This document shows, in pieces, positions 2,856 to 23,856 of a stretch of 35,997 nt of DNA (the stretch's first letter is position 1; the number at the start of each line of letters is the position of its first letter). Position numbers and translations under genes: made by a program. This DNA is from Candidatus Aenigmatarchaeota archaeon (GTDB lineage: Archaea; Aenigmatarchaeota; Aenigmatarchaeia; CG10238-14; SCSR01). The stretch covers positions 1 through 35,997 of the forward strand of contig JAWBNW010000002.1 of assembly GCA_039000685.1 (NCBI GenBank), written 5' to 3'. The notes under the pieces were generated by a model. The model was not told the origin of the DNA. It worked only from the letters and a program-made list of their open reading frames with translations, and searched no databases.

Positions 2856-5225
2856 GTGAAATTAATGAAAGTGATAGCTGATTTTCACATTCATTCATTT
2901 TGGAGTAGAGCAACAAGCAAACAAATGAATTTAGATGGTATTAGTGATGGGGCAAAAATCAAAGGTTTAAACTTAGTTGGCACTGGTGATTTTACTCATC
3001 CAAAGTGGTTTGACGAATTGAGAAAAAAATTGAAACCTGTAGAAAATAGTGGATTGTTTGAATTCAATGGTATCTTGTTTACTTTAACCAGTGAAGTTGC
3101 AACCTACTTTGAAGTTGGAGGGATGATGAAAAGGGTTCATCATGTCATTCATGCCCCTAGCTTTGATGTTGTAAATCAAATAAATGAAGCTTTAAAAAAA
3201 TATGGTGACTTGGCTTCTGACGGTAGGCCAATTTTAAATTTGAGTGCAACAGAACTTGTGGAAATTTTAACTCAAATTAGCAATGATATTTTAATTTATC
3301 CAGCACATGCCTGGACGCCTTGGATGAGCTGTTTTGGAAGTAAATCAGGCTTTAATTCAATGGAAGAATGTTATCAAGATCAAGCCAAGCATATCTATGC
3401 ATTGGAAACTGGAATGTCTTGTTATGATGGGAAAACTGAAGTTTTAACCAGTAATGGTTGGAAAAAAATTTCTCGGGTAAAAAAATCAGATGAAATTTGC
3501 ACTTTAGATCCTAAAACAAACGAGATTAAATTTCAAAAGCCTAAGGAGATATTCTCTTATAAATACAAAGGAAAAATGTACAGACTGAAAACTAAAAGAG
3601 TAGATTTGTTTGTTACTCCAAATCATAAACTTTTCGTTAGCAAATGCGATTTTCACAAACAACCTAAATTCTTTTTAAAAGAAGCCGAATTTCTGTTCAA
3701 TAAATCAAAGAGATTTAAAAAAGATGGCATTTGGGTCGGTAATAATACAAACTTTTTTGTTTTACCTTCTGTGAAAATAAAATACGGAAATCACCATTAC
3801 AAAGGGTTCCGAGTCAAGAAAGAAAAGAAAATTCCTATAAAACCATGGTTGAAATTTTTTGGATTTTGGCTAGCAGAAGGGTGGACAACAGAAGGAAAAA
3901 ACGGGGACTATTGTGTCTACATAGCTAATTCTAATAAGAGTTTAATTTCCGAAATGCAGCAAATTCTCAAAAGTTTTGGATATAATCCTTATCTTTATAC
4001 AAATAAAGGAATTGAGACGCTAAGGATAAGAGACTATCAATTATTTCATTATCTTAAACAGTTTGGGAAAAGTTCTGATAGATTTGTTCCCAAAGAAATA
4101 AAGTCTTTGCAAAAAGGGCTTCTTGAAATATTTTTCAACTACTATATTAAAGGAGATGGACACATTTATGGCCGAAAAGGCAGGGGTTTGTCTGCAATCA
4201 CTAGCTCTACCAGATTGCGAGACGATCTTCAGGAAATTGCATTAAAAATAGGAATTTCCGCTTATTATAAATTACATAAGAAAAAAGGAACTTTATTTCT
4301 TAGTCCTGGTTATAAGTATTCTAGAAAGTACAAACAAAAAAAAGATACTTGGGTTGTTTATTTTATTAGGAAAAATATTCACACAGTGTTGCCATCCGCT
4401 ATCAAAAAAAATAAATATATAGAATCTTGGGTTGATTTTAATGGTAAAGTATTTTGTGTATCTGTTCCAAATCAAGTAATTTATATTAGAAGAAACGGTA
4501 TTCCTGTTTGGTGTGGAAATTCCGACCCCGCGATGAACTGGAGATTGTCTGATTTGGACAGGTTCACTCTTGTGAGTAACAGTGATAGCCACAGCCCATG
4601 GAGCTGGCGTTTGGGAAGAGAAGCAAATGTTTTTGATTTGAAAAAAATAACCTATTGGGAAATTTTTGATGCTATTAAAAATAAAGACAAGAAAAGTTTT
4701 TTGTACACGATAGAAGTTGACCCAAACTATGGAAAATATCATTTCACTGGTCATAGGAATTGTAATGTGGTTTTGCATCCAAGAGATGCTATTAAGTTAA
4801 ACAATATTTGTCCAAAATGTCATAGAAAACTTACAGTTGGTGTGTTGCAGAGAGTGGAAGAACTTGCTGATAGGCCAGAAGGTTTTGTTCCAAAAGACGC
4901 CATTCCTTTCAAGACTCTGTTGCCTTTGTATGAAATCATTTCTTTTGCTTGGGGTTCGGGAGAGCTTTATTCAAAAAAAGTTTTGGAAGAGCATAACAAA
5001 CTAATAGAAAAGTTTGGAAATGAATTGAATGTTTTGTTGAATGTTCCAAAAGAAGAGCTGGTAAAAGTTACGAATGAAAAAATTGCAAATGCGATAATAA
5101 AAGTGAGAGAAGGAAAAGTCAAATACATACAGGGGGCAGATGGTCGATATGGTCAACCAATTTTCGATGAAAGAATTATTCCTAAACAGAGCTTTCATTA
5201 CCAAAAAAATCTAACTGAATTTTAG
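2856..5225 (+). CDS. endonuclease Q-like PHP-domain nuclease, interrupted by an intein
   Basis: N-terminal ADFHIHS...KGLNLVGTGDFTHP, then RVHHV, PAHAWTPW, and after the intein SDPAM...LVSNSDSHSP..RLGREANVF, GKYHFTGH and the zinc-finger CPKC. This parallels P. furiosus EndoQ as I remember it. The extein is 422 aa. GTG at 2856 or ATG at 2865 could be the start. Confidence 0.7.
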   Translation: MKLMKVIADFHIHSFWSRATSKQMNLDGISDGAKIKGLNLVGTGDFTHPKWFDELRKKLKPVENSGLFEFNGILFTLTSEVATYFEVGGMMKRVHHVIHAPSFDVVNQINEALKKYGDLASDGRPILNLSATELVEILTQISNDILIYPAHAWTPWMSCFGSKSGFNSMEECYQDQAKHIYALETGMSCYDGKTEVLTSNGWKKISRVKKSDEICTLDPKTNEIKFQKPKEIFSYKYKGKMYRLKTKRVDLFVTPNHKLFVSKCDFHKQPKFFLKEAEFLFNKSKRFKKDGIWVGNNTNFFVLPSVKIKYGNHHYKGFRVKKEKKIPIKPWLKFFGFWLAEGWTTEGKNGDYCVYIANSNKSLISEMQQILKSFGYNPYLYTNKGIETLRIRDYQLFHYLKQFGKSSDRFVPKEIKSLQKGLLEIFFNYYIKGDGHIYGRKGRGLSAITSSTRLRDDLQEIALKIGISAYYKLHKKKGTLFLSPGYKYSRKYKQKKDTWVVYFIRKNIHTVLPSAIKKNKYIESWVDFNGKVFCVSVPNQVIYIRRNGIPVWCGNSDPAMNWRLSDLDRFTLVSNSDSHSPWSWRLGREANVFDLKKITYWEIFDAIKNKDKKSFLYTIEVDPNYGKYHFTGHRNCNVVLHPRDAIKLNNICPKCHRKLTVGVLQRVEELADRPEGFVPKDAIPFKTLLPLYEIISFAWGSGELYSKKVLEEHNKLIEKFGNELNVLLNVPKEELVKVTNEKIANAIIKVREGKVKYIQGADGRYGQPIFDERIIPKQSFHYQKNLTEF
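3420..4520 (+). mobile_element. intein (367 aa) with a LAGLIDADG homing-endonuclease domain
   Basis: Starts with Cys (ETGMS|CYDGKTEVLTSNGW). Block B is VTPNHKLF. The two LAGLIDADG motifs are FFGFWLAEGWT and FNYYIKGDGHI. It ends ...NGIPVWCGN|SDPAM with Ser at +1. Length 1101 nt, in frame. Confidence 0.8.
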
Positions 5226-6758
5226 TGTCTTCTTAGCCAATTCTTTATACTTTATTGTATCTTTTTTAATTTTACTTGATAAAAACTTCCATTCTTTTTC
5301 TATCTCCTCTAATGGTTTATTACCAGAATTGAGCACTAACTTACTTTTCTTAATTTTTTCTTCATGTCTAAGTGGCAATAATTTTAACAATTTTTTCACT
5401 TCACCTTTCCTTCCTATTCTCAGATTCCACACAATTCTTTCCCCGAAATGATCTTTGTTTATTTTTCCTTGAAATAAAAGAGGTTTAAATCCTCTATTCA
5501 GAAAACCTTTTGCTACATCATTTAGCAATTCGAAATCTGTCGATGTGATATTTATCCAAAATCTTAAGTAGTTATTATAAATGCCCAAAGCAACGGTTCC
5601 TTCAGAATCTATAAGACCTGCTACAAAATTTAAAAACAATTCCTTATTCAAAAGTATTTCTGAAGGTACTTTATTTAATTTCTCTACCAAGAAAGAAAAA
5701 GATCTGTCTAAATAAGCCGAAATCCTCCATGCGTATTCTCCTTTTCTGTTTTCAAATGGGTACTTCCTGATGAAACCAAAATTTCCAAACAACTTGTTCA
5801 TTAATATTTCCCATGCTGGATGAGTTGTACTAACATCACAAATAACTCTCTTATCATCAATAAGGGCGTGTAAGTCTCCACATCTTAACCCTAGTAGATA
5901 ACACTTAAATTTTGTCATTTCTCTGCTATCTTCTATAAATGGTCTTTTTGGATATTTTGTAAGAGCATCTGAAATACTTCTTCTTGGAATGTTGTATTTT
6001 TCTAATCGCTTTCTAATTTTAGCACCACTTAAATCAAAAAGTAAACCTATTTCCCTTGAACTTAATTTACATTCCAAGTATAGATGCTCCAGAACTTCTT
6101 TGGGGATTTCTTCCGAACTTATAGCTAATCCTAATGATTTTCTCTTTTTAAATTTGTTATAAATTTCATTCACGATTTTACGAATTTTTGGCTTAACTTT
6201 CTTTAAGAGAAGATTCCTCTCTTTTTGATCAACAACTCTTTTCTGAATACTCCTTCGTGTCTTTATTTTAAATTTTTTAAGTAAGTTTTCAATAGTTTTT
6301 CTATTAACTTCAAACAAAATGCCAATTTTAGAAGCGCTTAATTTATTTTCTATGTATAATTTCTTAAGCAATTGGAAAGGAATGTTTACTTTTTTAGGTT
6401 TAATTTCTTTCTTGCATTTTTCAATTTCTAACCGTAAGCTACGAGGTAATAATCTTAAAAGGAATTGTCTGCTTGGATTTCTTCTGGGAGGAGCCGCCTC
6501 ATGAAGACTACTTTTTCTAATGTTAAGTTTTGAAAACCATTTATAAATCGTGTCATAATCTTTTTCAAATAACGAAGCTATTTTTCTTAAACTTAATTTA
6601 TAGTTCCAATAAAGTTTTTTCAATATTTCTTTGAGCTTCTCTTTATCGTTCTTAGTTAATTTTGAGAATTTTTTGCCTTTTAAATGCTCATAAAACCCTT
6701 TAACCATTCTCTGGACTTCACGTGGTAACGTGTCCAAAATTTTATTTTTCTCTTCCAT
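5211..6758 (-). CDS. free-standing LAGLIDADG endonuclease-like protein with three tandem N-terminal HTH modules
   Basis: Three ~65-aa repeats of LYxxxKLSxRxIxxLFxxxxxTIxxxxxKxxIxxRRS, then the LAGLIDADG motifs YLLGLRCGDLH and FVAGLIDSEGTV. Confidence 0.75.
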   Translation of the reverse strand: MEEKNKILDTLPREVQRMVKGFYEHLKGKKFSKLTKNDKEKLKEILKKLYWNYKLSLRKIASLFEKDYDTIYKWFSKLNIRKSSLHEAAPPRRNPSRQFLLRLLPRSLRLEIEKCKKEIKPKKVNIPFQLLKKLYIENKLSASKIGILFEVNRKTIENLLKKFKIKTRRSIQKRVVDQKERNLLLKKVKPKIRKIVNEIYNKFKKRKSLGLAISSEEIPKEVLEHLYLECKLSSREIGLLFDLSGAKIRKRLEKYNIPRRSISDALTKYPKRPFIEDSREMTKFKCYLLGLRCGDLHALIDDKRVICDVSTTHPAWEILMNKLFGNFGFIRKYPFENRKGEYAWRISAYLDRSFSFLVEKLNKVPSEILLNKELFLNFVAGLIDSEGTVALGIYNNYLRFWINITSTDFELLNDVAKGFLNRGFKPLLFQGKINKDHFGERIVWNLRIGRKGEVKKLLKLLPLRHEEKIKKSKLVLNSGNKPLEEIEKEWKFLSSKIKKDTIKYKELAKKTLKFS

Positions 6759-6845
6759 ATTTTATCACTTTATCATTTTATCTATATAATATCATATAGA
6801 CATACATATTTAAATACTTGACGGTTAAATATTATTAGTGGCGTT

Positions 6846-6992
6846 ATGGGTAGGTTAATGGTTAATGATGTTGATGATGCTATACTAAGAGAATTTAAAG
6901 CAAGAATAATTAAAAAACATGGAACTTTGAGGGGCCATTTTGGAGAAGAAACTACAAAAGCATTGAAATTGTGGCTCGAAAAAGAAAAGTGA
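6846..6992 (+). CDS. small ribbon-helix-helix (CopG/antitoxin-like) protein, 48 aa
   Basis: Below the length cutoff of the ORF track. Sequence MGRLMVNDVDDAILREFKARIIKKHGTLRGHFGEETTKALKLWLEKEK has a beta-alpha-alpha pattern typical of RHH DNA binders. Confidence 0.45.
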   Translation: MGRLMVNDVDDAILREFKARIIKKHGTLRGHFGEETTKALKLWLEKEK

Positions 6993-6996
6993 CTTC

Positions 6997-7102
6997 ATGA
7001 AATTAAAATTCCCTCCTTGCGGAGCCCTTTGTGAAATTTGTAAAGATTTCAAAATTAGATGCAAAGGCTGCATAGAAACAAAAATTTCCATCTCAAAAAA
7101 AT
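6997..7102 (+). pseudogene. possible N-terminal remnant of a Cys-rich DUF3795-like gene
   Basis: MKLKFPPCGALCEICKDFKIRCKGCIETK has a CGxxCxxC...CxGC pattern. The ORF then runs antisense into the well-supported dcd/dut gene, so only ~35 codons are free-standing. Confidence 0.2.
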
Positions 7103-7618
7103 TTAAGACAGTTTTGAAATATTTTCACCTTTGTAAATTCCTGAGTAAATATGGTTTGTGGGTTTGTTCAGTTTCAAAAAAACAAATTGAGCTATCCTTG
7201 CATTTTCTTTTATTTTTATTCCATTTTTGTTGAAAACTACAAGCAAAGAATTGCTTCTTCCTTGATATCCTGGATCCCAGAGGGAAGAAACTACAGTTGC
7301 TCCCATTCTAACCAAAGAAGATCTTGGTCTTAAAAAAGCCATCAAATCATTTGGCACATTCACAATTTCATTGAAAGTTATTAGATAGCAGCCTTGGTTG
7401 AGCTTGAGCCAACCTTGCTTAAATTTAATTTTCTCAAGATTTGGAAGCTTTCTTTCTTGATTCGAAAAATCTATTTGGCCAAAACTTTCGAAATTGTAAA
7501 CTTCTCTTAAAGTTAAATCAAAACTTGCTGGCTGTGCTTGCTTATCAAGATCCAAAAAATCTTCTATAAGCTTATCTTTATTTATCCTTTCCAAAATTTC
7601 TTCTTTTGATAAAATCAT
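7103..7618 (-). CDS. dCTP deaminase / dUTPase superfamily protein
   Basis: 171 aa with FDLTL, LRPRSSLVRMG and SLWDPGYQGRS motifs typical of the trimeric dUTPase/Dcd fold. Confidence 0.75.
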   Translation of the reverse strand: MILSKEEILERINKDKLIEDFLDLDKQAQPASFDLTLREVYNFESFGQIDFSNQERKLPNLEKIKFKQGWLKLNQGCYLITFNEIVNVPNDLMAFLRPRSSLVRMGATVVSSLWDPGYQGRSNSLLVVFNKNGIKIKENARIAQFVFLKLNKPTNHIYSGIYKGENISKLS

Positions 7619-7651
7619 GAATTAAATTTATAGACTTAAATAAATATTATT

Positions 7652-7722
7652 GGGTCCGTAGTCTAACGGTAGGACACCGCTCTCACACAGCGGAGAATTG
7701 GGTTCAATTCCCAACGGACCCA
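7652..7722 (+). tRNA. tRNA-Val (CAC), no intron
   Basis: Manual cloverleaf: acceptor GGGTCCG/CGGACCC, D stem GTCT/GGAC, anticodon stem CCGCT/AGCGG with loop CTCACAC, T arm TTGGG-TTCAATT-CCCAA, discriminator A. No encoded CCA. Confidence 0.9.
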
Positions 7723-7761
7723 TTTTGCAAATTTAAGCAAGAACAAAAACAATTTGTTTAT

Positions 7762-8535
7762 ATGCTTGAACAAGTGAAAATTTTTTTATATTCCTTATTT
7801 TCACCTCAACCACACTACACTTTCTTGAACACTTTTGTTTATGCGATTGGTTTTGTTTTTGCATCTTACTTTTTTTTCCTATTTCTAAAAAGAATGAAAA
7901 TCAAAATAGATAGAAATTTGTCAATATCCTTAATTCCTTTTGTGCTTCTTGGTAGTTGTTTAAGAGTGTTTGTTGATGCCAAAATCCTTGAAAGTATCTT
8001 TCTTAGAACTCCTTTAATTTACCTTACTATCGGTTTCCTGTTTGTTTCTGTTTTGTTGTTTTCAATTTTCTTGCAGAAAAAGTACAGAATACCCTACTTT
8101 AAGCTAACTTATCGCATAGGAATTTTGCTATCTGCACCAATGATAGCAATTATATTAATTAAAATTGTCAATCCTTTATCATCTTTTCTTGTGTTGATTT
8201 TTCTTTCACCTTGGTTGATCTTACTGAAAATTTTAAAATGGAAAGGAGAAAATAAAGCTGTTTTTCTTACCCAAATTTTTGATGCCACTGTCAGCTTTGT
8301 TGGTATGAATTTTTTTGGCTATGAGGAAATGCATGTCTTACCAAAAATTTTCATTGAATCCTTCGGTCCAATTTCTTTCGTATTTTTGAAAGCTTTAGTT
8401 GTCTTTTCTATTCTAACTCTAATTGAAAAATTGAAAGGAGAGAAAGAAATCAAAAATTTCATCAAGCTAATGATAGGAATTCTCGGGGCTTCAACAGGAA
8501 TTAGAGATCTTTTCAGAATTCTCCTTCTGGTTTAA
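7762..8535 (+). CDS. polytopic membrane protein (DUF63-like, tentative)
   Basis: 257 aa with about 7 hydrophobic spans. The FDATVSFVGMNFFGYEEMHVLP segment resembles the archaeal DUF63 family as I recall it. Confidence 0.4.
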   Translation: MLEQVKIFLYSLFSPQPHYTFLNTFVYAIGFVFASYFFFLFLKRMKIKIDRNLSISLIPFVLLGSCLRVFVDAKILESIFLRTPLIYLTIGFLFVSVLLFSIFLQKKYRIPYFKLTYRIGILLSAPMIAIILIKIVNPLSSFLVLIFLSPWLILLKILKWKGENKAVFLTQIFDATVSFVGMNFFGYEEMHVLPKIFIESFGPISFVFLKALVVFSILTLIEKLKGEKEIKNFIKLMIGILGASTGIRDLFRILLLV

Positions 8536-9635: not shown

Positions 9636-9673
9636 AAGTCCCTAATTTAAATTATGTTTAAAAAAGAATAAGT

Positions 9674-9865
9674 TTATTTCAATTGTTTCTTTTTTAAAGA
9701 AGTTATGTAACCTGCCACAATATTCCTTATTCTCTTTGAATTTATGTCAAGGAGTTGGGAAACAATTTTTTTGTTAGCCTCAAAATCTGTGGAGAACTTG
9801 TCGGTATTTTCCTCGAGCAAATCTTTTGCTATTTTCTTGATAAAAGAAGTTTTTATCCTTCCCAT
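9674..9865 (-). CDS. rps17e: 30S ribosomal protein S17e
   Basis: MGRIKTSFIKKIAKDLLE...IRNIVAGYITSL, 63 aa, the typical S17e sequence and size. Confidence 0.9.
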   Translation of the reverse strand: MGRIKTSFIKKIAKDLLEENTDKFSTDFEANKKIVSQLLDINSKRIRNIVAGYITSLKKKQLK

Positions 9866-9876
9866 TAAATCACTGA

Positions 9877-10443
9877 TTATGGTGTCAGTCGCTTGATCTC
9901 ATAATAAGTGCAATCGTTCTCCCTATCAACAACTGCCCAGACGAAAGTTGCCCTTATGTTGTGAGCAAGCCTTACAGCTCTAGACATTTCGGGTAGAGAA
10001 AAAGCTGATTCTTCTGGAACTGCATGAACCACAAACTTTGTGTGCTCATGAGGGGCTTTCGGGCCTCTCACAAGCTTTACCCCTCTCTCATAAACCCTGA
10101 AATGGGCACCAAACTTAAAACCGGTTTTCACGAGATAGCCTCTTTCCCTCAAATCACGATAAACCACAAACTGTGGGTGGAATTGATTGATGTTTTTTGT
10201 GGCTATCTCTAATAGCTCTTTCAGGTCTATATTCCTCTTTTTACTATCTTCTTTTACGAAAATTTTGATTTTTCCTTTTTCTAAAAGGTAGGCTGCTTCC
10301 ACCAACTCTAACTCAAGCCTTTGAGGATTTTCCTCTGGAACAGGCTTGCCAAAACCAGAATCATCATAAAGTCTAACAGAATCTCTATCCCAAATTATCA
10401 CTCTGTCCTCTATCAACTCTCCTTCCCAAATCTTCTCCATCAT
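9877..10443 (-). CDS. endA: tRNA-splicing endonuclease EndA (single-unit, ~188 aa)
   Basis: VVYRDLRERGYLVKTGFKFGAHFRVYERG...HEHTKFVVHAV, the catalytic Tyr/His/Lys region of archaeal EndA. Its size matches the one-unit (homotetramer-type) enzymes. Confidence 0.9.
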   Translation of the reverse strand: MMEKIWEGELIEDRVIIWDRDSVRLYDDSGFGKPVPEENPQRLELELVEAAYLLEKGKIKIFVKEDSKKRNIDLKELLEIATKNINQFHPQFVVYRDLRERGYLVKTGFKFGAHFRVYERGVKLVRGPKAPHEHTKFVVHAVPEESAFSLPEMSRAVRLAHNIRATFVWAVVDRENDCTYYEIKRLTP

Positions 10444-10485
10444 ACAACTATTTTGTTTTGTTAGTTTTTAAAAACTTTTCTGAGA

Positions 10486-10998: not shown

Positions 10999-11076
10999 AA
11001 AGAATAATTTGAATTCAAAATTAAAAAGATGGGACGGGTGGGATTTGAACCCACAACACATCGCTCTTCAGGCGAT

Positions 11077-11091
11077 CTAGAGCCAAATGGT
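11077..11091 (-). other. tRNA-Phe intron 2 (15 nt, position 26/27), BHB
   Basis: AGAG-[CA|A]-CC-ATTT-GG-CTCT-[AG|A]-TCG: H helix AGAG/CTCT, two 3-nt bulges and a minimal inner stem. Confidence 0.75.
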
Positions 11092-11109
11092 TGCTCTCCC
11101 GGGTTGAGC

Positions 11110-11128
11110 CTACGGTAGCAATTGCTAT
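11110..11128 (-). other. tRNA-Phe intron 1 (19 nt, position 9/10), canonical hBHBh'
   Basis: GGG-ACGG-[TA|A]-TAGC-AATT-GCTA-CCGT-[AG|G]-CTC: a 4-bp H helix (ACGG/CCGT) with a 3-nt bulge 3' of each H strand. Confidence 0.8.
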
Positions 11129-15035: not shown

Positions 15036-15040
15036 TTGAA

Positions 15041-16056: not shown

Positions 16057-16104
16057 AAAAAGAAATTATTTTTAAATTAGTTAAGGTTGAAATAAAATTA
16101 GAAA

Positions 16105-16196
16105 GCCTCGTTAGCTCAACGGTAGAGCATCCGAAGAGCTTAGCTCTGGTGAACCTTGTAAGCGGAGGGTTGTGGGTTCAAATCCCACACGAGGCT
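16105..16196 (+). tRNA. tRNA-Thr (UGU) with an intron at 30/31
   Basis: After removing 20 nt: GCCTCGT TA GCTC AACGGTA GAGC A TCCGC CTTGTAA GCGGA GGGTT GTGGG TTCAAAT CCCAC ACGAGGC T (72 nt). Confidence 0.85.
16134..16153 (+). other. tRNA-Thr intron (20 nt, inside the anticodon stem, 30/31), canonical hBHBh'
   Basis: GAG-CATC-[CG|A]-AGAGC-TTA-GCTCT-GGTG-[AA|C]-CTT: H helix CATC/GGTG (one G.U pair) with 3-nt bulges. Confidence 0.8.
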
Positions 16197-16197
16197 C

Positions 16198-17241
16198 TTA
16201 TTTTTGAAGAAAATCGACATCAAACCAACTAGCAATTTTTGTTAAATTGAAATTCTTGATTAAAGAAAAAGTTATTGGTGAAGAGAAATTGGAAAAAATC
16301 CATTTAAAGATTAAGCCTTTTCTGATTGGCCATATCAGCCTTTCTTTCCATTTTTTATCATAATTTTCAAGCAAAAATTTTTTAGAAAAATCTTTTGCTT
16401 CTAAAGCTTTGATGATTGCTTCGCTTGCAATTTCTGAGCAAATTTTGTTGTAAACTAGACCCCCACCAGAAAAAGGCTTAATTTGACAAGCAGAGTCTCC
16501 AACCAAAAGCACATTATCTACAACTGAACTTTCAATTATTCCATATCTTAGAAAATCTCCAATTTTATTATAGGCCTTGACTCTTCCGAATCTTTCCATC
16601 AAGAATTTTTCCAAGTATTTGTTGGGGTTTTCTTTTGTTAATAGGCCTACTCTTGCAATTCTTTCACTCTCAGGAACAACCCAAGCAAAACCTAAAGGAG
16701 CAATTTTTGAACCAAAATGAAGTTCAACTGTCTTAGCATCAAAGTTTGATTTTACCTTAACTTGTAAAGCAAATAACAAATTTTCCGGTTGTTTTATTTT
16801 AGCTTTCTTGGCAACAGTTGAATTTGGTCCATCTGCCCCAACTAAAATCTTTGTTTGAAATTTTCCTTTGGTTGTAAAGATTGTTTTACCTTTTAAATCT
16901 AGGAATCTTGTTGATGTCTTGATTTCGGCTCCCACTTTCTCAGCATTTTTTGCAAGCCAGCTGTCATATTTTTTTCTGTCTAAAACAAGCATCGGTTCTT
17001 TTGAATTAACTTCAAAAAATTCTTTGCCACAAAAAAATCTTGCCTTCCTAATTTTGTTCAAAGTTATATTTTTTGGAATTTTACCAATTCTCCTGCTAAC
17101 TAAGCCTGTACATTGAACGGGCTCTCCTATTCTTTGGTGTTCCTCCAAAATCAGGACATTAAATCCTTTTTTGGCAACAATTTTGGCTGTTATACAGCCT
17201 GCAGGACCAGCACCAACTACAATACAATCAAAAAGAGTCAT
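16198..17241 (-). CDS. geranylgeranyl reductase family flavoprotein (archaeal lipid saturation)
   Basis: N-terminal DCIVVGAGPAGC FAD motif, LEEH, GADG and LVGDSA motifs. 347 aa. Confidence 0.8.
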   Translation of the reverse strand: MTLFDCIVVGAGPAGCITAKIVAKKGFNVLILEEHQRIGEPVQCTGLVSRRIGKIPKNITLNKIRKARFFCGKEFFEVNSKEPMLVLDRKKYDSWLAKNAEKVGAEIKTSTRFLDLKGKTIFTTKGKFQTKILVGADGPNSTVAKKAKIKQPENLLFALQVKVKSNFDAKTVELHFGSKIAPLGFAWVVPESERIARVGLLTKENPNKYLEKFLMERFGRVKAYNKIGDFLRYGIIESSVVDNVLLVGDSACQIKPFSGGGLVYNKICSEIASEAIIKALEAKDFSKKFLLENYDKKWKERLIWPIRKGLIFKWIFSNFSSPITFSLIKNFNLTKIASWFDVDFLQK

Positions 17242-18562
17242 CCAACAACCTCTGAAGTTTGTTTATTACTTCGGTTTCTGAAAATAGTTTGACTGGAGAA
17301 TTTATACCCTCCACCCAAACTTTAACTGTAGAATAAGGTAATTTGAATCTTTTAGAAATTTCTTTTATAGATTTTCCCTTTTCAAATTCTTTTTTTACCT
17401 CTAAAAATAGAGCATTTCTATATTTACTTCTTTTGATTCTGTTTTTGACGATCCTTAATGTTCTTATAAATTCCTTTTTCCTATCATCTGAAAAATTAGG
17501 AACAAATCTGAAGAACTTGATATAGTTTTCAGCACTACAAGATACGTAGAAGTAAGATTTACTTACCAATTTACCATCTTTGTTCCTTATGTATGATTCT
17601 TTGGACCACTTAACTGCAGTTGATTTTATACCAAATTGGCCAAGCAGCTTTCGGATTTCATTCATAAAATTCTCTTGTTCTTTTTTGAGTTCTAAAACCT
17701 TGCTTAATTGAAAACATAAATAAAAACTTCTTTTTGACCAAATTGGTTTTGTTCCATCTGCAGACCATAAGACACCAAGAAAAATTGACTTTAATTCATC
17801 GGGTAATTTAAAAACCCATTGAGGAATTTTTATAGCCTGAACAATTTTGTCTCCCTTTGGTGCTCCTGCTGCATAAAGAAGCCTTGAAATAGCAGCATTA
17901 TTAATAATAAGATAGTTAGCTCTACCTTTTATAATTCTATCTTGAAATACACCTTCTGTCTCCTTTGTTTTTAATTTACATTTTAATGAAGGTAATTCCA
18001 ATTTTATTTCTTTCATTAATAATTGAAGTGTTTTTCTATCTCCAGCCAATGTAATTTGTGTTAAATTATTGCCCAAATTACCATCTCCAAAAATCCATGC
18101 TAATATTTTCAAAAATAATTTAAACTTTGAATTATTCTTAGAAATTAGAGGAAGTAATCCTAACTTTGTCAGTGTAATTACACACCTAATAGCCCTTGGA
18201 GTAGTTTTAGATGACCAATTACTTACAGTTTGTTTAGGAATTTTTAATTTGATAGCTATATCTTTTAATTTTACTCCTTGCTTCCTCATTTTTTTAGCAG
18301 CAATATAATTGAAAGCTAGCCCCTGTTCTTTCTTATTGTAAGTTCTTATTATATCTTCAAATGTTACTATTGCGTCTTCATTCGTTTCAAAAAAATCTTC
18401 TTCATCTTTCCAGCTTTTACCTTGGAATCTTAAGCCTAGTTTTCTAGCCTTCTTTTGAACGCTATAATAACTTCTATTTAAAATTTTAGAAAGCTTAATT
18501 ACACCAAACTTTTCATAGTTATTTTTCAATAGCGTAATTTCTTCTTCTTTCCATTTCCTCAT
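17228..18562 (-). CDS. free-standing LAGLIDADG endonuclease-like protein with Myb/SANT-like and HTH modules
   Basis: N-terminal WKEEEITLL..., HTH IPKQTVSNWSSKTTP, LAGLIDADG motifs LAWIFGDGNL and FLGVLWSADGTK, and C-terminal HTH IKEISKRFKLPYSTVKVWVEG. Confidence 0.75.
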   Translation of the reverse strand: MRKWKEEEITLLKNNYEKFGVIKLSKILNRSYYSVQKKARKLGLRFQGKSWKDEEDFFETNEDAIVTFEDIIRTYNKKEQGLAFNYIAAKKMRKQGVKLKDIAIKLKIPKQTVSNWSSKTTPRAIRCVITLTKLGLLPLISKNNSKFKLFLKILAWIFGDGNLGNNLTQITLAGDRKTLQLLMKEIKLELPSLKCKLKTKETEGVFQDRIIKGRANYLIINNAAISRLLYAAGAPKGDKIVQAIKIPQWVFKLPDELKSIFLGVLWSADGTKPIWSKRSFYLCFQLSKVLELKKEQENFMNEIRKLLGQFGIKSTAVKWSKESYIRNKDGKLVSKSYFYVSCSAENYIKFFRFVPNFSDDRKKEFIRTLRIVKNRIKRSKYRNALFLEVKKEFEKGKSIKEISKRFKLPYSTVKVWVEGINSPVKLFSETEVINKLQRLLDDSF

Positions 18563-18606
18563 AAATTAATCTTGATGAGTAATGATATTTACTATTTCGG
18601 GACTTC

Positions 18607-18621
18607 ATTTCCGATGTTTCC
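18607..18621 (-). promoter_or_regulatory. GGAAACATCGGAAAT motif upstream of LAGLIDADG gene 17228..18562
   Basis: A direct GGAAA repeat 44 nt upstream of the ATG. A near-identical copy lies upstream of the paralog at 20720..20734. Both are followed by AAATAT and CTCAT. Confidence 0.35.
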
Positions 18622-18636
18622 AAAACCTAAGAGAAC

Positions 18637-19394
18637 TTATCTTCCAAACCTACGTTGCCTTCGATTAAACTCTTTTATACACCAAATTAAATCCCTTTTT
18701 GTAAAATCGGGCCAAAACTTGGGAAGAAATATTAATTCTGCATAAGCTGCTTGCCATAAGAGAAAATTAGAAAGTCTTTTCTCCCCTCCTGTACGAATTA
18801 AACAATCTATGGGAGCTGGAACAAGTAAGTTAGCTTCTATATCTTTTTCTGTTATCTCTATTCTTCCAAGCTTAATTGCCTTTTCTGCGATTTTCTTTAT
18901 TGCTTGCGTTAATTCAAACTTGCTTCCATAAGCAATCATTATGTTTAAAACCCTTTTCTGATATTTTGCAGTTTTTTGCATTATTTTTCCCATAAGTTTA
19001 ACGAGTTTTGGAGGCAATCTTTCCAAATCACCAACAAACCTTACCTTGACTTGATATTTGTCTAAAAAGCTTCCTTCTTTCTTTTCCCATCTTTCGAAGT
19101 ATTCATAAAATAATTTGAAAATTTCTTCCAGCTCTTTTTTTGGTCTATTCAAATTTTCTGTTGATAACACATAGGCTGAGACTTGTGGTATTCCAAGCTC
19201 TAAACACCACTGCAAAAAGTTTTCGAAATTTTTTATGCTTGTGGGCTTGTCGCCCAACAATTTGCACCGTATTTATGGCCTTCCCACGGCTGAAGACCAT
19301 GTAGCTTGGCCCACCTTCTGTCTATGGGATTTAAGCCTTTATAGGCTCAAATCTTTCCATCAAGTATTATTCCTAGATGATTTGGAACATTCAA
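18637..19394 (-). CDS. uppS: cis-prenyltransferase (undecaprenyl/polyprenyl diphosphate synthase), three exons joined by removal of two BHB mini-introns
   Basis: Exons are 19394..19355, 19321..19262 and 19232..18637, totalling 696 nt = 231 aa. The spliced N-terminus is MNVPNHLGIILDGNRRWAKLHGLQPWEGHKYGAKNFENFLQWCLELGI...STENLNRP...RTGGEKRLSNFLLWQAAYAEL...RRFG. TTG start preceded by the GGGGTGAT SD. Unspliced, the gene has a TGA and then a frameshift. Confidence 0.75.
19233..19261 (-). other. uppS intron B (29 nt, frame-shifting), BHB
   Basis: GTGC-[AA|A]-TTGT(T)GGGC-GACAA-GCCCACAA-GCAT-[AA|A]: H helix GTGC/GCAT with 3-nt AAA bulges. The boundary can slide within the A runs without changing the product. 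Confidence 0.7.
19322..19354 (-). other. uppS intron A (33 nt, contains an in-frame TGA), canonical hBHBh'
   Basis: (TTG)-ATGG-[AA|A]-GATTTGAGCCT-ATAA-AGGCTTAAATC-CCAT-[AG|A]-(CAG): H helix ATGG/CCAT and an 11-bp inner hairpin. Confidence 0.75.
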
Positions 19395-19398
19395 CTAT

Positions 19399-19406
19399 AT
19401 CACCCC
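19399..19406 (-). promoter_or_regulatory. Shine-Dalgarno for uppS
   Basis: GGGGTGAT lies 4 nt upstream of the TTG start. AT-rich TATA-like sequence sits further upstream. Confidence 0.4.
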
Positions 19407-19442
19407 ATATTTTAATTTTAAATAATGATTAAAATTTAAAAA

Positions 19443-20675
19443 TTAGCATGTAATTTCCTTAAGAAATGGAAACCTTTGTGTTAATAAATCCCAATCCTTT
19501 GGTAGTAGATTAAGCTTAACTGACTGAATAGCTATGTAAGCAGGTTTTTTAAACCAAGATTTAATAGTAGATCTAGGAAATCCTGTAATAATACTAATCT
19601 GGTTGGAAGTATAATTTTTAACTCGTAATCTTAGAACATTCCAATAATCTTCAGCAGAATATCTGTATTTCTTTTTATTTTTAATTATTTTATCAAGAGC
19701 GTATTCCTTCCTTTTTATAGTAAAACCAATTTCTTTCCTAAAAATTTCAAGATAATTAGAAAAACTAAATCTAATTTTATATAATTTTCTACCTTTCTTT
19801 GCAAGTTCTATTTTTGTAAAAATCCCGAACTTTGATAACAAAAATCTTATATCTTCTAATCCATTCTTGTTAGAAGAAGTTGCCTCGATTGCTCTATTAG
19901 AAATATCAACACTCCCTTCTGAATCAAAAAACCCTTTCAAGAAAGATGAAATTATAAGTTTATCATTATTTTTAATTATTTCTTGGGGAACTCTCCACAC
20001 ATACGAATTAAATTCACCGTACCTCTTTAAATCTTCATAAACCTTTTTTCTTTGTAAATAAACAATATATTGTCGTTTACATTTAGAAAGTCCAGAAGGA
20101 GTTATTCTGATACCGGGTGGTATATTACACTCTTTTGCAATAATACCATAAACATTTTTTATTTTATTTTTAAATTCATCGGCAAACTCTTTATCAGTAA
20201 CTCTTAACCCTAAGAAGTAATTAAAGTATTTATAACCTTTGTATTTTACCAACTTCCGATAGAGCATACCATCCCCACAAAGAACGCCAAGAATATAGGC
20301 TTTTGCTGGAGTTAATGTTTTATAATTTTTGTTTGGAATTTCTAATGGAGTTTTTCTATATCTATTTCTATCCCTAGGAATCTGAAATTTTTTCATTTGT
20401 TTAAAAATATAAGTTGTAGAGCAACCAAAAACTTTTGCTATTTCTTGAAGTGAAAGTCCTTTTTTGTAATAAAGTTCATATAATTTATTTCTCTCGAATT
20501 TTGGTAATCTCAAATCATTCTTTCTTATTTTTAAATTCTTATAGAGTTTCCACTCAATACTATCTTTTGATCTATTTAACCTTCTAGCTATTTCTTCATT
20601 TGATAGACGTTCTTTAGCATATTTTACCAATAAATTGATTTCAGTTTTATTCCATCTTCTTCCCATATCTATCAC
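19443..20675 (-). CDS. free-standing LAGLIDADG endonuclease-like protein with Myb/SANT-like and HTH modules
   Basis: WNKTEINLL..., HTH module LYELYYKKGLSLQEIAKVFGCSTTYIFKQMKKFQIPRDR, LAGLIDADG motifs AYILGVLCGDGML and FLKGFFDSEGSV, and C-terminal HTH ITGFPRSTIKSWFKK. 20675 is a GTG; the ATG at 20666 (MGRRWNK) is the likelier start. Confidence 0.75.
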   Translation of the reverse strand: MIDMGRRWNKTEINLLVKYAKERLSNEEIARRLNRSKDSIEWKLYKNLKIRKNDLRLPKFERNKLYELYYKKGLSLQEIAKVFGCSTTYIFKQMKKFQIPRDRNRYRKTPLEIPNKNYKTLTPAKAYILGVLCGDGMLYRKLVKYKGYKYFNYFLGLRVTDKEFADEFKNKIKNVYGIIAKECNIPPGIRITPSGLSKCKRQYIVYLQRKKVYEDLKRYGEFNSYVWRVPQEIIKNNDKLIISSFLKGFFDSEGSVDISNRAIEATSSNKNGLEDIRFLLSKFGIFTKIELAKKGRKLYKIRFSFSNYLEIFRKEIGFTIKRKEYALDKIIKNKKKYRYSAEDYWNVLRLRVKNYTSNQISIITGFPRSTIKSWFKKPAYIAIQSVKLNLLPKDWDLLTQRFPFLKEITC

Positions 20676-20719
20676 TTTCAGATATGAGCAAACACAATAT
20701 ATTTGTTTTTTTGAAGCAG

Positions 20720-20734
20720 ATTTCCGTTGTTTCC
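20720..20734 (-). promoter_or_regulatory. GGAAACAACGGAAAT motif upstream of LAGLIDADG gene 19443..20666
   Basis: Second copy of the motif at 18607..18621, 53 nt upstream of the ATG. Confidence 0.35.
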
Positions 20735-20787
20735 GATAAATTTTAAAATTATGATTTCCTATACTGAAGTATAAAAAAATTAAATAT

Positions 20788-20890
20788 GGGGTCGTCGTCT
20801 AACCAGGCAGGACAGCAGGCTCCAGTTTCATGGAGCTCGGATAAAAGATGAAGAAACCTGTATGTGGGGGTTCAAATCCCCTCGACCCCA
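20788..20890 (+). tRNA. tRNA-Trp (CCA) with a ~30-nt intron in the anticodon loop region
   Basis: GGGGTCG TC GTCT AACCAGGCA GGAC A GCAGG CTCCAG[intron]A CCTGT ATGT GGGGG TTCAAAT CCCCT CGACCCC A. All allowed intron placements give the anticodon CCA. Confidence 0.8.
20826..20855 (+). other. tRNA-Trp intron (30 nt; boundaries uncertain by up to 2 nt)
   Basis: At the canonical 37/38 placement the H helix would be CTCC/GAAG with a C.A mismatch. The strongest helix is TTCAT/ATGAA (20827-31 / 20848-52). This is a relaxed rather than strict BHB. Confidence 0.5.
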
Positions 20891-20920
20891 CTTGATTTTA
20901 CTTTTTAAATTATCAAAAAA

Positions 20921-21904
20921 ATGTTAGAATTAATTATGTCAATTGATATAATTGGGGGTGGGCCAGCTGGTTCTACCGCTTCAATATTCTTAGCTAAAAG
21001 TGGATTTGATGATATTAAACTATATGAAAAATCTGTTAAAGTCAGAAAACCATGTGGGGGTGGTTTGACTTTTAGGGTTCTTGAAAGGTACGATTATCTT
21101 TTGGAAGGTTTGAAAACAAACCCAATTAAAACAATTGTGGTTGATATTGACAATACTATAATAAAATTTGGGTTCAAAAAAGTGGTATTAAAAATAGTAG
21201 ATCGCTTAAAGCTTGATGAGCACTTAAGAAAAATTGCTAAAAGTCTTGGTGTTAAAATAATTGGAAAAAACGTTGAACCAAAAGAATTGAACGGCAAACT
21301 TGTGATTGATGCCAGGGGATTTGACTCGGAACAAAAATTTTCAATTGCAAAAGTTGCGATTTGTAAGTTAAAAGATTCTATCGCCACTTTCATTTTCAGG
21401 AAAAAATTCATAAGTAAAGGCTATTTTTGGATTTTCCCGATAAATGAAAAACTAGCCAATATAGGTTGTGCTGGAACTAAAAATGGTTTTAAAACTAATT
21501 TAGATGAAGTTTTTGATTGGTTTATTGAAGAAATTGGTGCTAAGCCTTTATCCATCATGAATTATCCTATAACTGTGTATAGTAAGATCAATAGTTTGAT
21601 TTATAGACACGACGATAAAATTGTGGTTAAAGTTGGGGAAAGGGCTGGCCTTGTTAACCCACTGACTGGGGAAGGAATTTATCATGCAATAAGAAGTTCA
21701 GAAATATTGGCTGAATGCATAAAAGACGATGTTTTTTTATATCAGAAAAGGATTGAAGATGAATTTAAAAAAGAACTAACAATTTCTAAATTCTTGGTTG
21801 ATTCTTTCCCTATAATGCCAAATTTCCTAAAAAAATTTTTATTAAAACATGCTGTAAAAATTATATTTCCGTCTACGAAAATTATAGAAATGTGTAGAAA
21901 TTAA
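20921..21904 (+). CDS. geranylgeranyl reductase-family FAD-dependent oxidoreductase (second paralog)
   Basis: IIGGGPAGSTASIFLAKSG dinucleotide-binding motif, DARG, and GERAGLVNPLTGEGI. An alternative start is at 20936. Confidence 0.7.
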   Translation: MLELIMSIDIIGGGPAGSTASIFLAKSGFDDIKLYEKSVKVRKPCGGGLTFRVLERYDYLLEGLKTNPIKTIVVDIDNTIIKFGFKKVVLKIVDRLKLDEHLRKIAKSLGVKIIGKNVEPKELNGKLVIDARGFDSEQKFSIAKVAICKLKDSIATFIFRKKFISKGYFWIFPINEKLANIGCAGTKNGFKTNLDEVFDWFIEEIGAKPLSIMNYPITVYSKINSLIYRHDDKIVVKVGERAGLVNPLTGEGIYHAIRSSEILAECIKDDVFLYQKRIEDEFKKELTISKFLVDSFPIMPNFLKKFLLKHAVKIIFPSTKIIEMCRN

Positions 21905-21905
21905 A

Positions 21906-22577
21906 TTATTTTTCTATCAATTCAACAAAAACAACAGGCCCAAGATTTTTCTTTTTAATTTTTCCATTTTTTGCTTTCTCCAAACAAATCAAATCTTGCT
22001 CATAAGTTGGTCCTAAGGGTGTGACTAAAATTCCTCCAGGTTTAAGCTGATCGATCCAAGCTTTCGGTATTCTTTCTCTTGGAGCTGCACTCGAAACTAT
22101 TTTGTCGTAAGGAGCAAATTCTGGTAAACCTTTTGAACCATCTCCCAGTACAAGCTTAACTTTATTCCAATAACCAGTTTTTTTCAAATTCTTCTTGGCA
22201 AATTCATAAGTCTCAGGGATTATTTCTATACCATAAACTTCTCCCCTTTCTCCAACAATTTCTTTCATATAAGCCAATAAGATTCCAGAGCCAGCACCGA
22301 TTTCAAGAACCTTATCACCTGGCTTGAGTTTTAAGGCAGAAAGGAAGATGGCGTGCATTTCCCCAACCTCTTAGGTGATATGGGGTGCAGATATGGTAAC
22401 ACCACCTGGGATTGGTAATGGCATATCAATGTAAGCATCCTGTTTATTTTCTGGGGGGACAAAATCCTCTCTCTTTACCTTTAACATTACGTTTTCTACA
22501 TTTTTGGATGTTATACAACCTGCTCTCACTAAACTTCCTATAACTTCTTCTCTTTGTTTTTTGAGTTCTTCTCTCAT
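21906..22577 (-). CDS. pcm: protein-L-isoaspartate O-methyltransferase, two exons joined by removal of a 21-nt BHB intron
   Basis: Exon 1 is 22577..22380 (66 codons, ending ...GGVTISAPH). Exon 2 is 22358..21906 (MHAIFLSALKLKPGDKVLEIGAGSG...). The spliced protein is 216 aa and its junction recreates TISAPHMHA. A GGAGGTG SD lies upstream. Confidence 0.8.
22359..22379 (-). other. pcm intron (21 nt, in-frame TAA), BHB
   Basis: TGCA-CCCC-[AT|A]-TC-ACC-TAAGA-GGT-T-GGGG-[AA|A]-TGCA: outer helix TGCA/TGCA, H helix CCCC/GGGG, 3-nt bulges and a weak inner stem. Confidence 0.75.
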
Positions 22578-23856
22578 CCAACACCTCCTCTACATGTTTA
22601 TATGATAATCCTCGAGATGCTTCTAAAACTCTCCGAGGAACAATACCATGAACCCAAGAAATCAATAACCAATGTTTTGGTATCTTTGATTTCTTATTTA
22701 ATCTAATTAGGTAATTCTCAGATGATAAGCCGTGGGTAGTATCACGATTACCGAACAAGATATATTTAATTTTTTCTTTGTGTTTAAAATAAGGTAAAAT
22801 ATCGTAACAAAACTTAACTGAATCGTCTACATTTGTTATTCCAGTCTTGAATGCAGAATGGTGATGTGTAGGACCATAGGGATTATAACCCAGATTTTTA
22901 AGTAGATTGTTTACATCCTTTACTGCCTTGAAACTTGCAGAAACTATGTGAAAATCTGGAAGATCTAATTTCTTAAAACCAAAACTCCCTTCTGATTCAA
23001 AAATTTTTGAAACCAATTGTAACTTTTCTTCTCTGTTTTTAGCTCTCTCTATTTCATTGAAATCGATGTTATAACTTTTAAAACCTAGAGAGAGTTTGTA
23101 TTTGAGACAAAGAATTTGCCTTAATGGTGCAGAAAAAATTTTTACATCTATTGAATTTGGTTTATCACATCTAGTTCCCACATGAATGTTTGATCGAGGC
23201 ACATAAAAATTTTTAATTATTTTTTCAACAATATTTCGTAATGAATCTTTGCCCTCTTTATTTTGAACTAAATTTATTTCCGTACTAGATATGCCTATAT
23301 ATCCTTCTGCCTTTAGCCAAGCTATAATTTCTCTTGTTTCATTTGTTTCTTTATTTACGAATAGGATACTATCATTTTTACTTTTTCCGCTAGCATAAAG
23401 TCTTTCTCCATTGATAATTTCCCAAAAGTTTAAATTTAATATTTGACATGCCTTAATGATAGCAGTTAAAGGTATCTTTGCTCTACCTGCAAGCCAACTA
23501 TCCACTGATTGTCTTGTCCTATCAACTAACTTAGAAAAACTGTCTTTGTATGAAAATGGGAGTTTTTTCATTGCTCTTTCTATTAAAATAATAAATTTCT
23601 TTTTGCTGGCTAAGTAAACTGGATTAAAACACACTCTTGGCATGAACGTTTTGCCACTTTGTATTTTTCTTTTTACTATAGCACCATCAAGACAAAACCA
23701 AAGATACTGTGAATAAATTGATTTTAGTGGGTTTTTTAGATTAATTTTGCATGCATTTTCAACCACACTTAGAGGTACCCATTCAGAATTACAATTTGTA
23801 TTCGCTAATCTAAGTGTTTCTTTAACTTTTTCATTGATTTGTACTTCATAATACAT
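22444..23856 (-). CDS. free-standing LAGLIDADG endonuclease-like protein with XRE-type and C-terminal HTH modules
   Basis: HTH RQSVDSWLAGRAKIPLTAIIKACQIL, LAGLIDADG motifs IIAWLKAEGYIG and LVSKIFESEGSFG, and C-terminal IPKHWLLISWVHGIVP. The last ~44 codons overlap pcm exon 1 in another frame. Confidence 0.7.
   Translation of the reverse strand: MYYEVQINEKVKETLRLANTNCNSEWVPLSVVENACKINLKNPLKSIYSQYLWFCLDGAIVKRKIQSGKTFMPRVCFNPVYLASKKKFIILIERAMKKLPFSYKDSFSKLVDRTRQSVDSWLAGRAKIPLTAIIKACQILNLNFWEIINGERLYASGKSKNDSILFVNKETNETREIIAWLKAEGYIGISSTEINLVQNKEGKDSLRNIVEKIIKNFYVPRSNIHVGTRCDKPNSIDVKIFSAPLRQILCLKYKLSLGFKSYNIDFNEIERAKNREEKLQLVSKIFESEGSFGFKKLDLPDFHIVSASFKAVKDVNNLLKNLGYNPYGPTHHHSAFKTGITNVDDSVKFCYDILPYFKHKEKIKYILFGNRDTTHGLSSENYLIRLNKKSKIPKHWLLISWVHGIVPRRVLEASRGLSYKHVEEVLDERRTQKTKRRSYRKFSESRLYNIQKCRKRNVKGKERGFCPPRK
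22582..22588 (-). promoter_or_regulatory. Shine-Dalgarno for pcm
   Basis: GGAGGTG lies 4 nt upstream of the ATG at 22577. It is inside the 3' end of the upstream LAGLIDADG ORF. Confidence 0.5.

Follow-up and report, generated by a model that had tools for sequence, protein, structure and literature searches.

Free-standing LAGLIDADG endonuclease genes of an Aenigmatarchaeota contig and predicted bulge-helix-bulge mini-introns in the genes downstream of two of them

A stretch of 35,997 nucleotides (nt) of contig JAWBNW010000002.1 (assembly GCA_039000685.1) from Candidatus Aenigmatarchaeota archaeon, referred to here as the window, was found to possess four free-standing open reading frames (ORFs), O1 to O4, for LAGLIDADG proteins. 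The genes lying just downstream of O3 and O4, UppS (a cis-prenyltransferase) and PIMT (protein-L-isoaspartate O-methyltransferase), are interrupted by short inserts with the geometry of bulge-helix-bulge (BHB) introns, a feature which was not mentioned in the initial annotation of this DNA. It is considered probable, with moderate confidence, that O1 to O4 are free-standing homing endonucleases, that O3 and O4 target the intron-less alleles of the downstream genes, and that the mini-intron protects the genome which carries it. We infer from sequence that DNA is cleaved and RNA spliced, and likewise which sites are targeted, with candidate target sites placed solely by position and by recombination tracts. 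The coordinates of all features are given in Table 1.

All of the sequences compared with the window are metagenomic, and the relatives are labeled L001–L065 (from NCBI, JGI, ENA, and Logan assemblies). A genome scan with GGR1 (the reductase gene beside UppS) as the query gave five related Aenigmatarchaeota loci, with additional alleles being obtained from a metagenome scan with UppS and from look-ups of O1, O3, and O4 orthologs.

Protein family and insertion sites of O1–O4

Each of the four ORFs encodes two LAGLIDADG motifs, located at amino acids (aa) 287–296 and 378–387 in O1, 154–162 and 261–270 in O2, 127–136 and 245–254 in O3, and 177–186 and 282–291 in O4, with the helices of each pair lying ~100 residues apart. 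The initial annotation had described these ORFs as having two such motifs with their acidic residues retained. The ORFs indeed exist, and the aspartate or glutamate which closes each motif was found to be invariant among the orthologs of each of the four families. Profile searches identified the domain directly in three of them, with scores against Pfam LAGLIDADG_3 (gathering score 22.5 bits) of 23.7, 23.0, and 55.5 bits for O1, O2, and O3, respectively. O2 also matched an RtcB model that includes an intein, in the part corresponding to the endonuclease (NCBIfam, 6.9e-26), and the O3 sequence matched I-MsoI and I-DmoI. Sequence searches of the PDB gave nothing useful for O1 and O2. A protein 100% identical to O3, from a 'Candidatus Aenigmatarchaeota' metagenome-assembled genome, is publicly annotated as 'LAGLIDADG family homing endonuclease'. 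The AlphaFold model of O3 (predicted local distance difference test, pLDDT, 89.4) superposes on I-DmoI with a template modeling (TM) score of 0.75 and E ~1e-8, and has the predicted pseudo-dimeric alpha-beta-beta-alpha-beta-beta-alpha fold; the Foldseek matches of this model also include WhiA and bI3 maturase.

No direct Pfam or NCBIfam match was obtained for O4, which is linked to the LAGLIDADG group through hhalign and through its relatives. A comparison of profiles by hhalign (81%, E 1.2e-5) aligned it motif to motif with the O3 family, and an exhaustive profile search starting from O4 reached 73 clusters, of which several exceed the LAGLIDADG_3 threshold and also contain HTH_3 (XRE-type). 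The AlphaFold model of O4, built from five sequences, is poor (pLDDT 58), and its top Foldseek matches are weak, all being to I-DmoI or WhiA. These profile comparisons place O4 as a divergent LAGLIDADG member. The true length of the protein is ~431 aa, as the window ORF ends in a 37-aa read-through tail (22444–22554) which runs over the start of PIMT in another frame. All four orthologs terminate ahead of these 37 codons, and the tail is probably the result of a lost stop codon and not a functional extension.

The reported fusion of these proteins to helix-turn-helix (HTH) modules was borne out by Pfam HTH matches. The further statement that one and the same module is N-terminal in one protein, C-terminal in another, and triplicated in a third did not hold, as two module types had been merged. 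The LYxxxxLSxxEIxxxF...IPRR module occurs in three copies in O1 and one in O3, all of them N-terminal, and the 'STVKxW'-type HTH is found both before and after the core in O2 and at the C-terminus of O3. With their monomeric double-motif core and conserved catalytic Asp/Glu, O1–O4 resemble I-DmoI, I-Tsp061I, I-PorI, PI-PfuI, and TliVMA. O3 is like I-DmoI in both fold and sequence, O2 resembles the endonuclease domain of the RtcB intein, and the archaeal intron-encoded endonucleases likewise originate from archaeal hosts with BHB-spliced introns. Unlike the I-DmoI group, O1–O4 stand alone in intergenic DNA and carry between one and four additional modules of HTH, Myb-like or XRE type. The four proteins add to a kind of protein that is already known.

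In other Aenigmatarchaeota, each of O1–O4 was found to have a separate set of orthologs (50–80% identity), which occupy a fixed site particular to that gene. Those of O1 (53–68% identity) are located at the 3′ end of EndoQ in convergent orientation in L053–L058, with O1 being absent from L006–L008. Orthologs of O2 (50–52%) lie between UppS and GGR1 in L014, L036, and L041, and the gene is absent from L001, L004, and L006–L009; other fillers of this interval, judged by eye only, are ordinary lipid-pathway-like genes (polyprenyl synthase-like, membrane protein) and not LAGLIDADG genes. Orthologs of O3 (58–70%) occur between the tRNA gene and UppS, where the boundaries of the indel were set by comparison with L006 and by L012 vs. 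L013, and those of O4 (61–80%) are found directly upstream of PIMT in L041 and L050–L052. The mutual identity of O1, O2, O3, and O4 in an all-vs.-all comparison is only 20–25%. On these sequence comparisons, they are four old lineages which arrived as independent invaders with no local expansion, and the 'expanding family' proposed in the initial annotation was not upheld.

The gene order of L006–L009 is that of the window for more than 20 kb (R15P isomerase, PIMT, tRNA, UppS, GGR1, topoisomerase VI, EndA, dcd, and EndoQ), and O1, O2, O3, O4, the two small ORFs which accompany them and the EndoQ intein are all absent from these collinear loci. The initial annotation had regarded the four genes as free-standing, mobile, and outside introns and inteins, and had named strict conservation of synteny across relatives as evidence that would point the other way. 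The comparison came out in favor of mobility, with the genes missing from collinear L006–L009 and their catalytic residues kept. Because these loci are without all five elements, the elements would be sporadic mobile insertions and not housekeeping genes. The cassette indels are clean between close relatives (L012/L013, L050/L020, and L031/L029), and the O3-UppS-O2 block is 99–100% identical in the window and L005, with flanks at 73–91%. A block of 99–100% identity with diverged flanks, together with indels at fixed sites, is the sequence signature of homing-type gene conversion and not that of housekeeping genes.

Two of the cassettes include a small ORF, neither of which (48 aa beside O1, 74-aa core beside O4) had a Pfam match. 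The 48-aa ORF is ~90% conserved in all O1-carrying loci (53–68% for O1 itself) and absent wherever O1 is absent; by eye, it resembles a ribbon-helix-helix protein. The stop codon of the 74-aa-core ORF, for which no PDB match was found, directly abuts the ATG of O4 in the same frame. The O3 orthologs in L004, L062, and L064 are preceded by a divergent 69–70-aa HTH_IclR-like ORF.

A fifth LAGLIDADG domain had been placed within an intein of EndoQ, and this was confirmed. The insert scored 55.3 bits against LAGLIDADG_3, 28.6 bits against intein_Nterm (over the cut-off of 24.5) and 27.3 against Pfam Intein_splicing (under the cut-off of 35.8). It starts at Cys189 (Cys1) and ends at the Asn555/Ser556 junction, and the EndoQ orthologs of L006–L008 join precisely at these boundaries with no insert. 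It is an intein as judged by Cys1, the terminal Asn followed by Ser, the Hint-domain match, and its precise absence in orthologs. Elsewhere, downstream of GGR1 in L004 (4845–7244), a gene for polyprenyl synthase has a LAGLIDADG intein of its own. The isoprenoid-lipid gene neighborhood seems to be a hotspot of homing elements in Aenigmatarchaeota.

Predicted BHB introns in UppS and PIMT

The UppS and PIMT ORFs beside O3 and O4 looked N-terminally truncated, and because of this it was considered that O3 and O4 might reside inside split host genes, as in a giant intron or a degenerate intein. This was rejected, as the N-terminal exons that seemed to be missing were located on the downstream side of the endonuclease ORFs, with the breaks in the genes being distinct inserts of 21–33 nt. 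Translation of the gaps revealed breaks in UppS after ILDG and after GHKYGA, and in PIMT between ISAPH and MHA. The in-silico removal of 33 and 29 nt restores DGNRRW and GHKYGAK in UppS, and that of 21 nt restores ISAPHMHA in PIMT. The predicted spliced products (231 aa for UppS and 216 aa for PIMT) are open throughout, with junction residues equal to those of the intron-less orthologs. The uninterrupted UppS genes of L006, L007, and L009 encode ILDGNRRWAKLHGLQPWEGHKYGAKNFENF, which is exactly the predicted spliced sequence of the window.

With the cut sites placed by protein alignment, all of the introns examined (16 of 16) have a central helix with four of four base pairs and bulges of 3 nt, each cut falling behind the second nucleotide of a bulge, with the reading frame being restored. 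The background rate of the 4-bp helix rule at random sites is 2.7% per site. Introns in L009/L017 and L062–L065 show the same BHB geometry by inspection. Intron length ranges from 13 to 52 nt across alleles and is often not a multiple of three. Homologs of UppS intron 1 (13–26 nt) were identified in L001, L004, L031, L062, and L064, and UppS intron 2 is present in every O3-carrying lineage as well as in L008 and L013. Between alleles, the helices show compensatory changes (ATGG/CCAT to ACGG/CCGT and CCCC/GGGG to CCTC/GAGG), and the inner hairpins are wholly different. By geometry and covariation, the UppS and PIMT inserts are predicted BHB introns. The window yielded no match to any Rfam intron family as would be sought for a group I intron, and inserts of 13–52 nt are far too small for a ribozyme. 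The I-DmoI system differs here too, as the present introns are ORF-less, 13–52 nt long, and located in a neighboring protein-coding gene, not in rRNA.

Gene callers give truncated or split ORFs for these genes, as would also be expected if the inserts were errors in sequencing or assembly, indels that turn the gene into a pseudogene, or programmed frameshift or read-through sites beside decaying genes. This explanation is regarded as extremely improbable. Independent NCBI, JGI, ENA, and Logan assemblies show the breaks at identical codon positions, and the inserts vary in length and sequence with their BHB pairing kept by compensatory changes. Sequencing frameshifts and pseudogenes as the cause are ruled out by this combination of conserved position, variable length, and covariation in independent assemblies. 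The flanking exons are under strong purifying selection and the predicted splicing restores catalytic motifs exactly. Furthermore, the inserts contain stops, and their lengths of 13–52 nt are incompatible with frameshifting.

Association of endonuclease genes with introns and a proposed homing mechanism

A UppS intron was found in seven of seven lineages with a LAGLIDADG gene directly upstream. This gene is O3 in the window/L005, L001–L003, L004, L012, L062/L063, and L064/L065, and a different LAGLIDADG ORF in L031/L032 (that of L031 being linked to the group by hhalign, 94.5%). Among the ~27 lineages which have no such gene upstream, two possess a UppS intron (L008 and L013). Similarly, the PIMT intron is present in all five O4-carrying lineages and in two of ~21 lineages without O4 (L020 and L009/L017). 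Fisher tests on earlier counts gave ~1e-4 for UppS and ~3e-4 for PIMT, values which are not corrected for phylogeny. The endonuclease carriers are thus a subset of the intron carriers, with introns occurring without an endonuclease gene and never the reverse, a pattern that speaks against a maturase function and in favor of protection of the carrier by the intron.

This pattern bears on the possibility that O1–O4 are not active nucleases but domesticated WhiA-like LAGLIDADG-HTH regulators, or splicing cofactors (maturases) of the neighboring introns, both of which had been raised in the initial annotation. The multiple HTH modules, the presence of WhiA and bI3 maturase among the Foldseek matches, the location of genes next to intron-containing genes, and the small DNA-binding-like ORFs beside some cassettes are all in keeping with such roles. 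WhiA, a bacterial transcription factor, does share with O1–O4 a LAGLIDADG scaffold fused to HTH. However, WhiA is without catalytic residues and universal in its clade, whereas O1–O4 keep their acids and are sporadic. The catalytic D/E of both motifs are invariant in every family, and the patchy distribution of the genes, which are missing from close collinear relatives, suggests that they are dispensable. As for a maturase, the introns persist without endonuclease genes, and we know of no requirement for a maturase in BHB splicing by EndA. A regulatory or cofactor role is considered quite improbable.

The sequence of PIMT in the window indicates where recombination may have occurred. Exon 1 is 81% identical to that of L051, with 53–57% amino acid identity to the closest relatives (L005–L008). 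Donor-like sequence, resembling that of the O4 carriers, covers exon 1 plus ~40 nt of exon 2, and the remaining gene is 97–100% L006-like. The crossover is placed within ~40 nt of the intron site because the donor-like tract ends ~40 nt into exon 2. On a larger scale, the window is ~95% (93–97%) identical to L006 over 24–32.5 kb, 99–100% identical to L005 over 16.5–20.9 kb, and only ~80% identical to every relative found over 7–16 kb. The identity switches along this mosaic fall at the O4 and O3/O2 cassettes. The mosaicism may have arisen from recombination at the endonuclease genes or from bin chimerism.

In the mechanism proposed, O1–O4 would represent four unrelated lineages, each protein having an I-DmoI-like nuclease core (monomeric, with two motifs) to which further HTH modules for DNA binding are added. 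Each endonuclease gene would have its own intergenic 'home' beside a conserved gene and would spread among Aenigmatarchaeota by double-strand break and gene conversion, with the EndoQ intein being a fifth element which may spread in the same manner from within a protein. O3 and O4 would cut the intron-less downstream allele at or near a conserved motif, namely DG/NRRW and/or GHxxGA/K in UppS and ISAPH/MHA in PIMT (a slash marks the intron position). Repair templated by the carrier would then transfer the BHB mini-intron of 13–52 nt along with the endonuclease gene and the short exon or exons at the start of the host gene. As the intron divides the recognition site, the carrier would be immune, and removal of the intron from the mRNA by EndA and a ligase would leave the host gene working. 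O1 and O2, which have no intron partner, would presumably be protected by loss of the target through their own insertion or by local sequence changes.

Ordinary homing endonucleases which target intergenic insertion sites or nearby polymorphic sequence, with independent BHB introns hitch-hiking by linkage, could produce part of the same pattern. Physical linkage of <250 nt would alone give co-inheritance, and introns occur with no endonuclease gene in L008, L013, L020, and L009. However, O3 and O4, which belong to unrelated families, and a third gene (the L031 ORF) are each located immediately 5′ of an intron-bearing gene, with the intron present in 12 of 12 carrier lineages. In addition, the recombination boundary in PIMT is within ~40 nt of the intron site and not at the gene start, and the introns reside in the most conserved motifs, which are classic homing targets. 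Linkage as the sole explanation is considered unlikely.

A number of observations weigh against intron-targeted homing, the first two of which also favor linkage. Mini-introns were looked for beside O2 (GGR1 and the 3′ end of UppS) and O1 (the 3′ end of EndoQ), and none were found. L012 carries O3 but is without UppS intron 1. The O3-family members in L059 and L061 have no obviously split neighbor. The endonuclease-intron partnership is not general, because the neighbors of O1 and O2 and those in L059 and L061 are without introns. UppS has two introns vs. one upstream endonuclease gene, so that the cut site of O3 is ambiguous between them. The outer helix of UppS intron 2 in the window is weak or absent (H1 = 0), and the EndA of the window is a single 188-aa subunit. 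The association counts ignore phylogeny, and several of the carriers (L004, L062, and L064) are related. Finally, chimeric metagenome bins could partly explain the mosaicism, yet the same arrangements recur in independent assemblies.

Intron-targeted homing by a separate endonuclease has a parallel in phages. Collaborative (trans) homing is described for the free-standing F-CphI beside an ORF-less psbA group I intron of cyanophages and for MobE with the nrdB intron and I-TevIII of T4 (PMC6083498, PMC2790892, PMC2988022). As in these pairs, at O3/UppS and O4/PIMT a stand-alone endonuclease gene adjoins a gene with an ORF-less intron in a conserved coding motif, the two are co-inherited, and the intron would confer immunity. 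This layout is not found at O1 and O2, whose neighbors are without an intron. The present pairs differ from those of phages in their archaeal host, in being LAGLIDADG and not Endo VII-like or HNH enzymes, and in having protein-spliced BHB introns and not self-splicing group I introns. Relative to the phage pairs, cleavage at the intron site is here predicted from sequence.

Genomic context and implications

Table 1. Features of the window, with coordinates from its first nucleotide
Feature	Coordinates	Strand	Evidence or context
EndoQ-family gene (TIGR00375 / MJ0043_C), intein host	2856..5225	+	NCBIfam TIGR00375 1.7e-58; L006–L008 orthologs contiguous
EndoQ intein, aa 189–555, double-motif LAGLIDADG domain	3420..4520	+	motifs 3855–3884, 4131–4160
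O1: three N-terminal HTH modules and LAGLIDADG core	5211..6758	-	overlaps EndoQ 3′ end, convergent
48-aa ORF MGRLMVNDVDDAILREFKARIIKKHGTLRGHFGEETTKALKLWLEKEK, divergent from O1, part of O1 cassette	6846..6992	+	conservation across O1 loci
EndA, tRNA-splicing endonuclease, enzyme expected to cut BHB introns	9877..10443	-	Pfam tRNA_int_endo 7.1e-27, tRNA_int_endo_N 9.4e-18
O2: Myb/SANT-like head, HTH, LAGLIDADG core, C-terminal HTH	17228..18562	-	between UppS and GGR1
UppS exon 3 (cis-prenyltransferase, PF01255)	18637..19232	-	
UppS intron 2, 29 nt, predicted BHB, at GHKYGA/K	19233..19261	-	
UppS exon 2 (NRRWAKLHGLQPWEGHKYGA)	19262..19321	-	
UppS intron 1, 33 nt, predicted BHB, inside catalytic DG/NRRW motif	19322..19354	-	
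UppS exon 1 (TTG start, LNVPNHLGIILDG)	19355..19394	-	
O3: two N-terminal HTH modules, I-DmoI-like LAGLIDADG core, C-terminal HTH	19443..20675	-	between tRNA gene and UppS
tRNA gene with intron, left edge of O3 insertion	20788..20890	+	Rfam tRNA 48.7 bits
PIMT exon 2 (PF01135), L006-like host background	21906..22358	-	
PIMT intron, 21 nt, predicted BHB, at ISAPH/MHA	22359..22379	-	
PIMT exon 1	22380..22577	-	cassette-like sequence
O4: XRE-type HTH N-terminal domain and divergent LAGLIDADG core	22444..23856	-	directly upstream of PIMT
Small ORF (74-aa core, MEKIIVLSFDIP...), travels with O4	23857..24081	-	always precedes O4

The window consists of low-GC archaeal DNA in which an archaeal signal recognition particle RNA is present, along with genes for topoisomerase VI, EndA, form III RuBisCO with AMP phosphorylase, and other housekeeping functions. 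The tRNA gene at the edge of the O3 insertion has a 34-nt insert in its anticodon loop, is 100% identical to that of L006, and was missed by ARAGORN. A tRNA-Leu gene (16105–16197) is likewise long (93 nt). GGR2, a second geranylgeranyl-reductase-like gene (20921–21904, plus strand), is located between PIMT and the tRNA gene and is without endonuclease features. It is found in the window and in L008, and is absent at the same site from L005, L006, L007, and L009, a presence/absence polymorphism.

A complete archaeal AMP-salvage cluster (24216–28067, plus strand), consisting of ribose-1,5-bisphosphate isomerase, form III RuBisCO, a small ORF, and AMP phosphorylase, is kept in all relatives. The region 28453–35629 (minus strand) encodes a series of large Cys-rich, signal- or transmembrane-anchored proteins (416–605 aa) with a vWA-like protein and a small pilin-like ORF, and this gene run may represent a surface or pilus-type module. 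Between the gene of a 367-aa secreted protein and EndA there are ~240 nt without an ORF (9636–9876), a gap of similar length being present in L006–L008; no Rfam family was detected in it at gathering thresholds.

BHB introns in archaeal mRNAs have been reported only for cbf5 and one 5′ untranslated region (UTR) (PMC2738675, PMC7714728), and these are still the sole citations in a 2025 paper. The cbf5 pre-mRNA intron of Crenarchaeota is 16–44 bp, with no mobility agent found (PMC2738675), and the other BHB site is in the 5′ UTR of HVO_1309 in Haloferax (PMC7714728). The introns of UppS and PIMT are like that of cbf5 in being short BHB introns which interrupt a protein-coding gene, leave no room for a nuclease ORF, and are lineage-specific in their presence and absence. 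They are unlike it in belonging to the DPANN phylum Aenigmatarchaeota, in the genes affected, in numbering up to two per gene, and in having an adjacent endonuclease gene. In the literature, which was covered incompletely, no report was found that describes BHB introns in protein-coding genes of DPANN, or introns paired with a free-standing LAGLIDADG gene in archaea.

It is tentatively suggested, with somewhat less than even confidence, that stand-alone LAGLIDADG endonucleases are the missing mobility engine of ORF-less BHB introns in DPANN protein-coding genes, bringing tRNA-type introns into conserved motifs through cleavage of intron-less alleles at the insertion site and co-conversion with the neighboring mini-intron, and that the endonuclease gene is later lost while orphan mini-introns stay, like those which are widespread in archaeal tRNA genes. 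If true, UppS and PIMT would be the first such examples beyond crenarchaeal cbf5. As two conserved DPANN genes with polymorphic mini-introns tightly beside stand-alone endonuclease genes, they provide a testable model for the movement of ORF-less BHB introns, for which the intron-less alleles in sister genomes are ready-made substrates. The HTH-decorated LAGLIDADG proteins would represent further natural scaffolds with extended DNA recognition. There is also a consequence for annotation, as gene callers predict UppS without its catalytic Asp and PIMT as two ORFs, so that such genes may be mistaken for broken ones in metabolic reconstructions of DPANN archaea.

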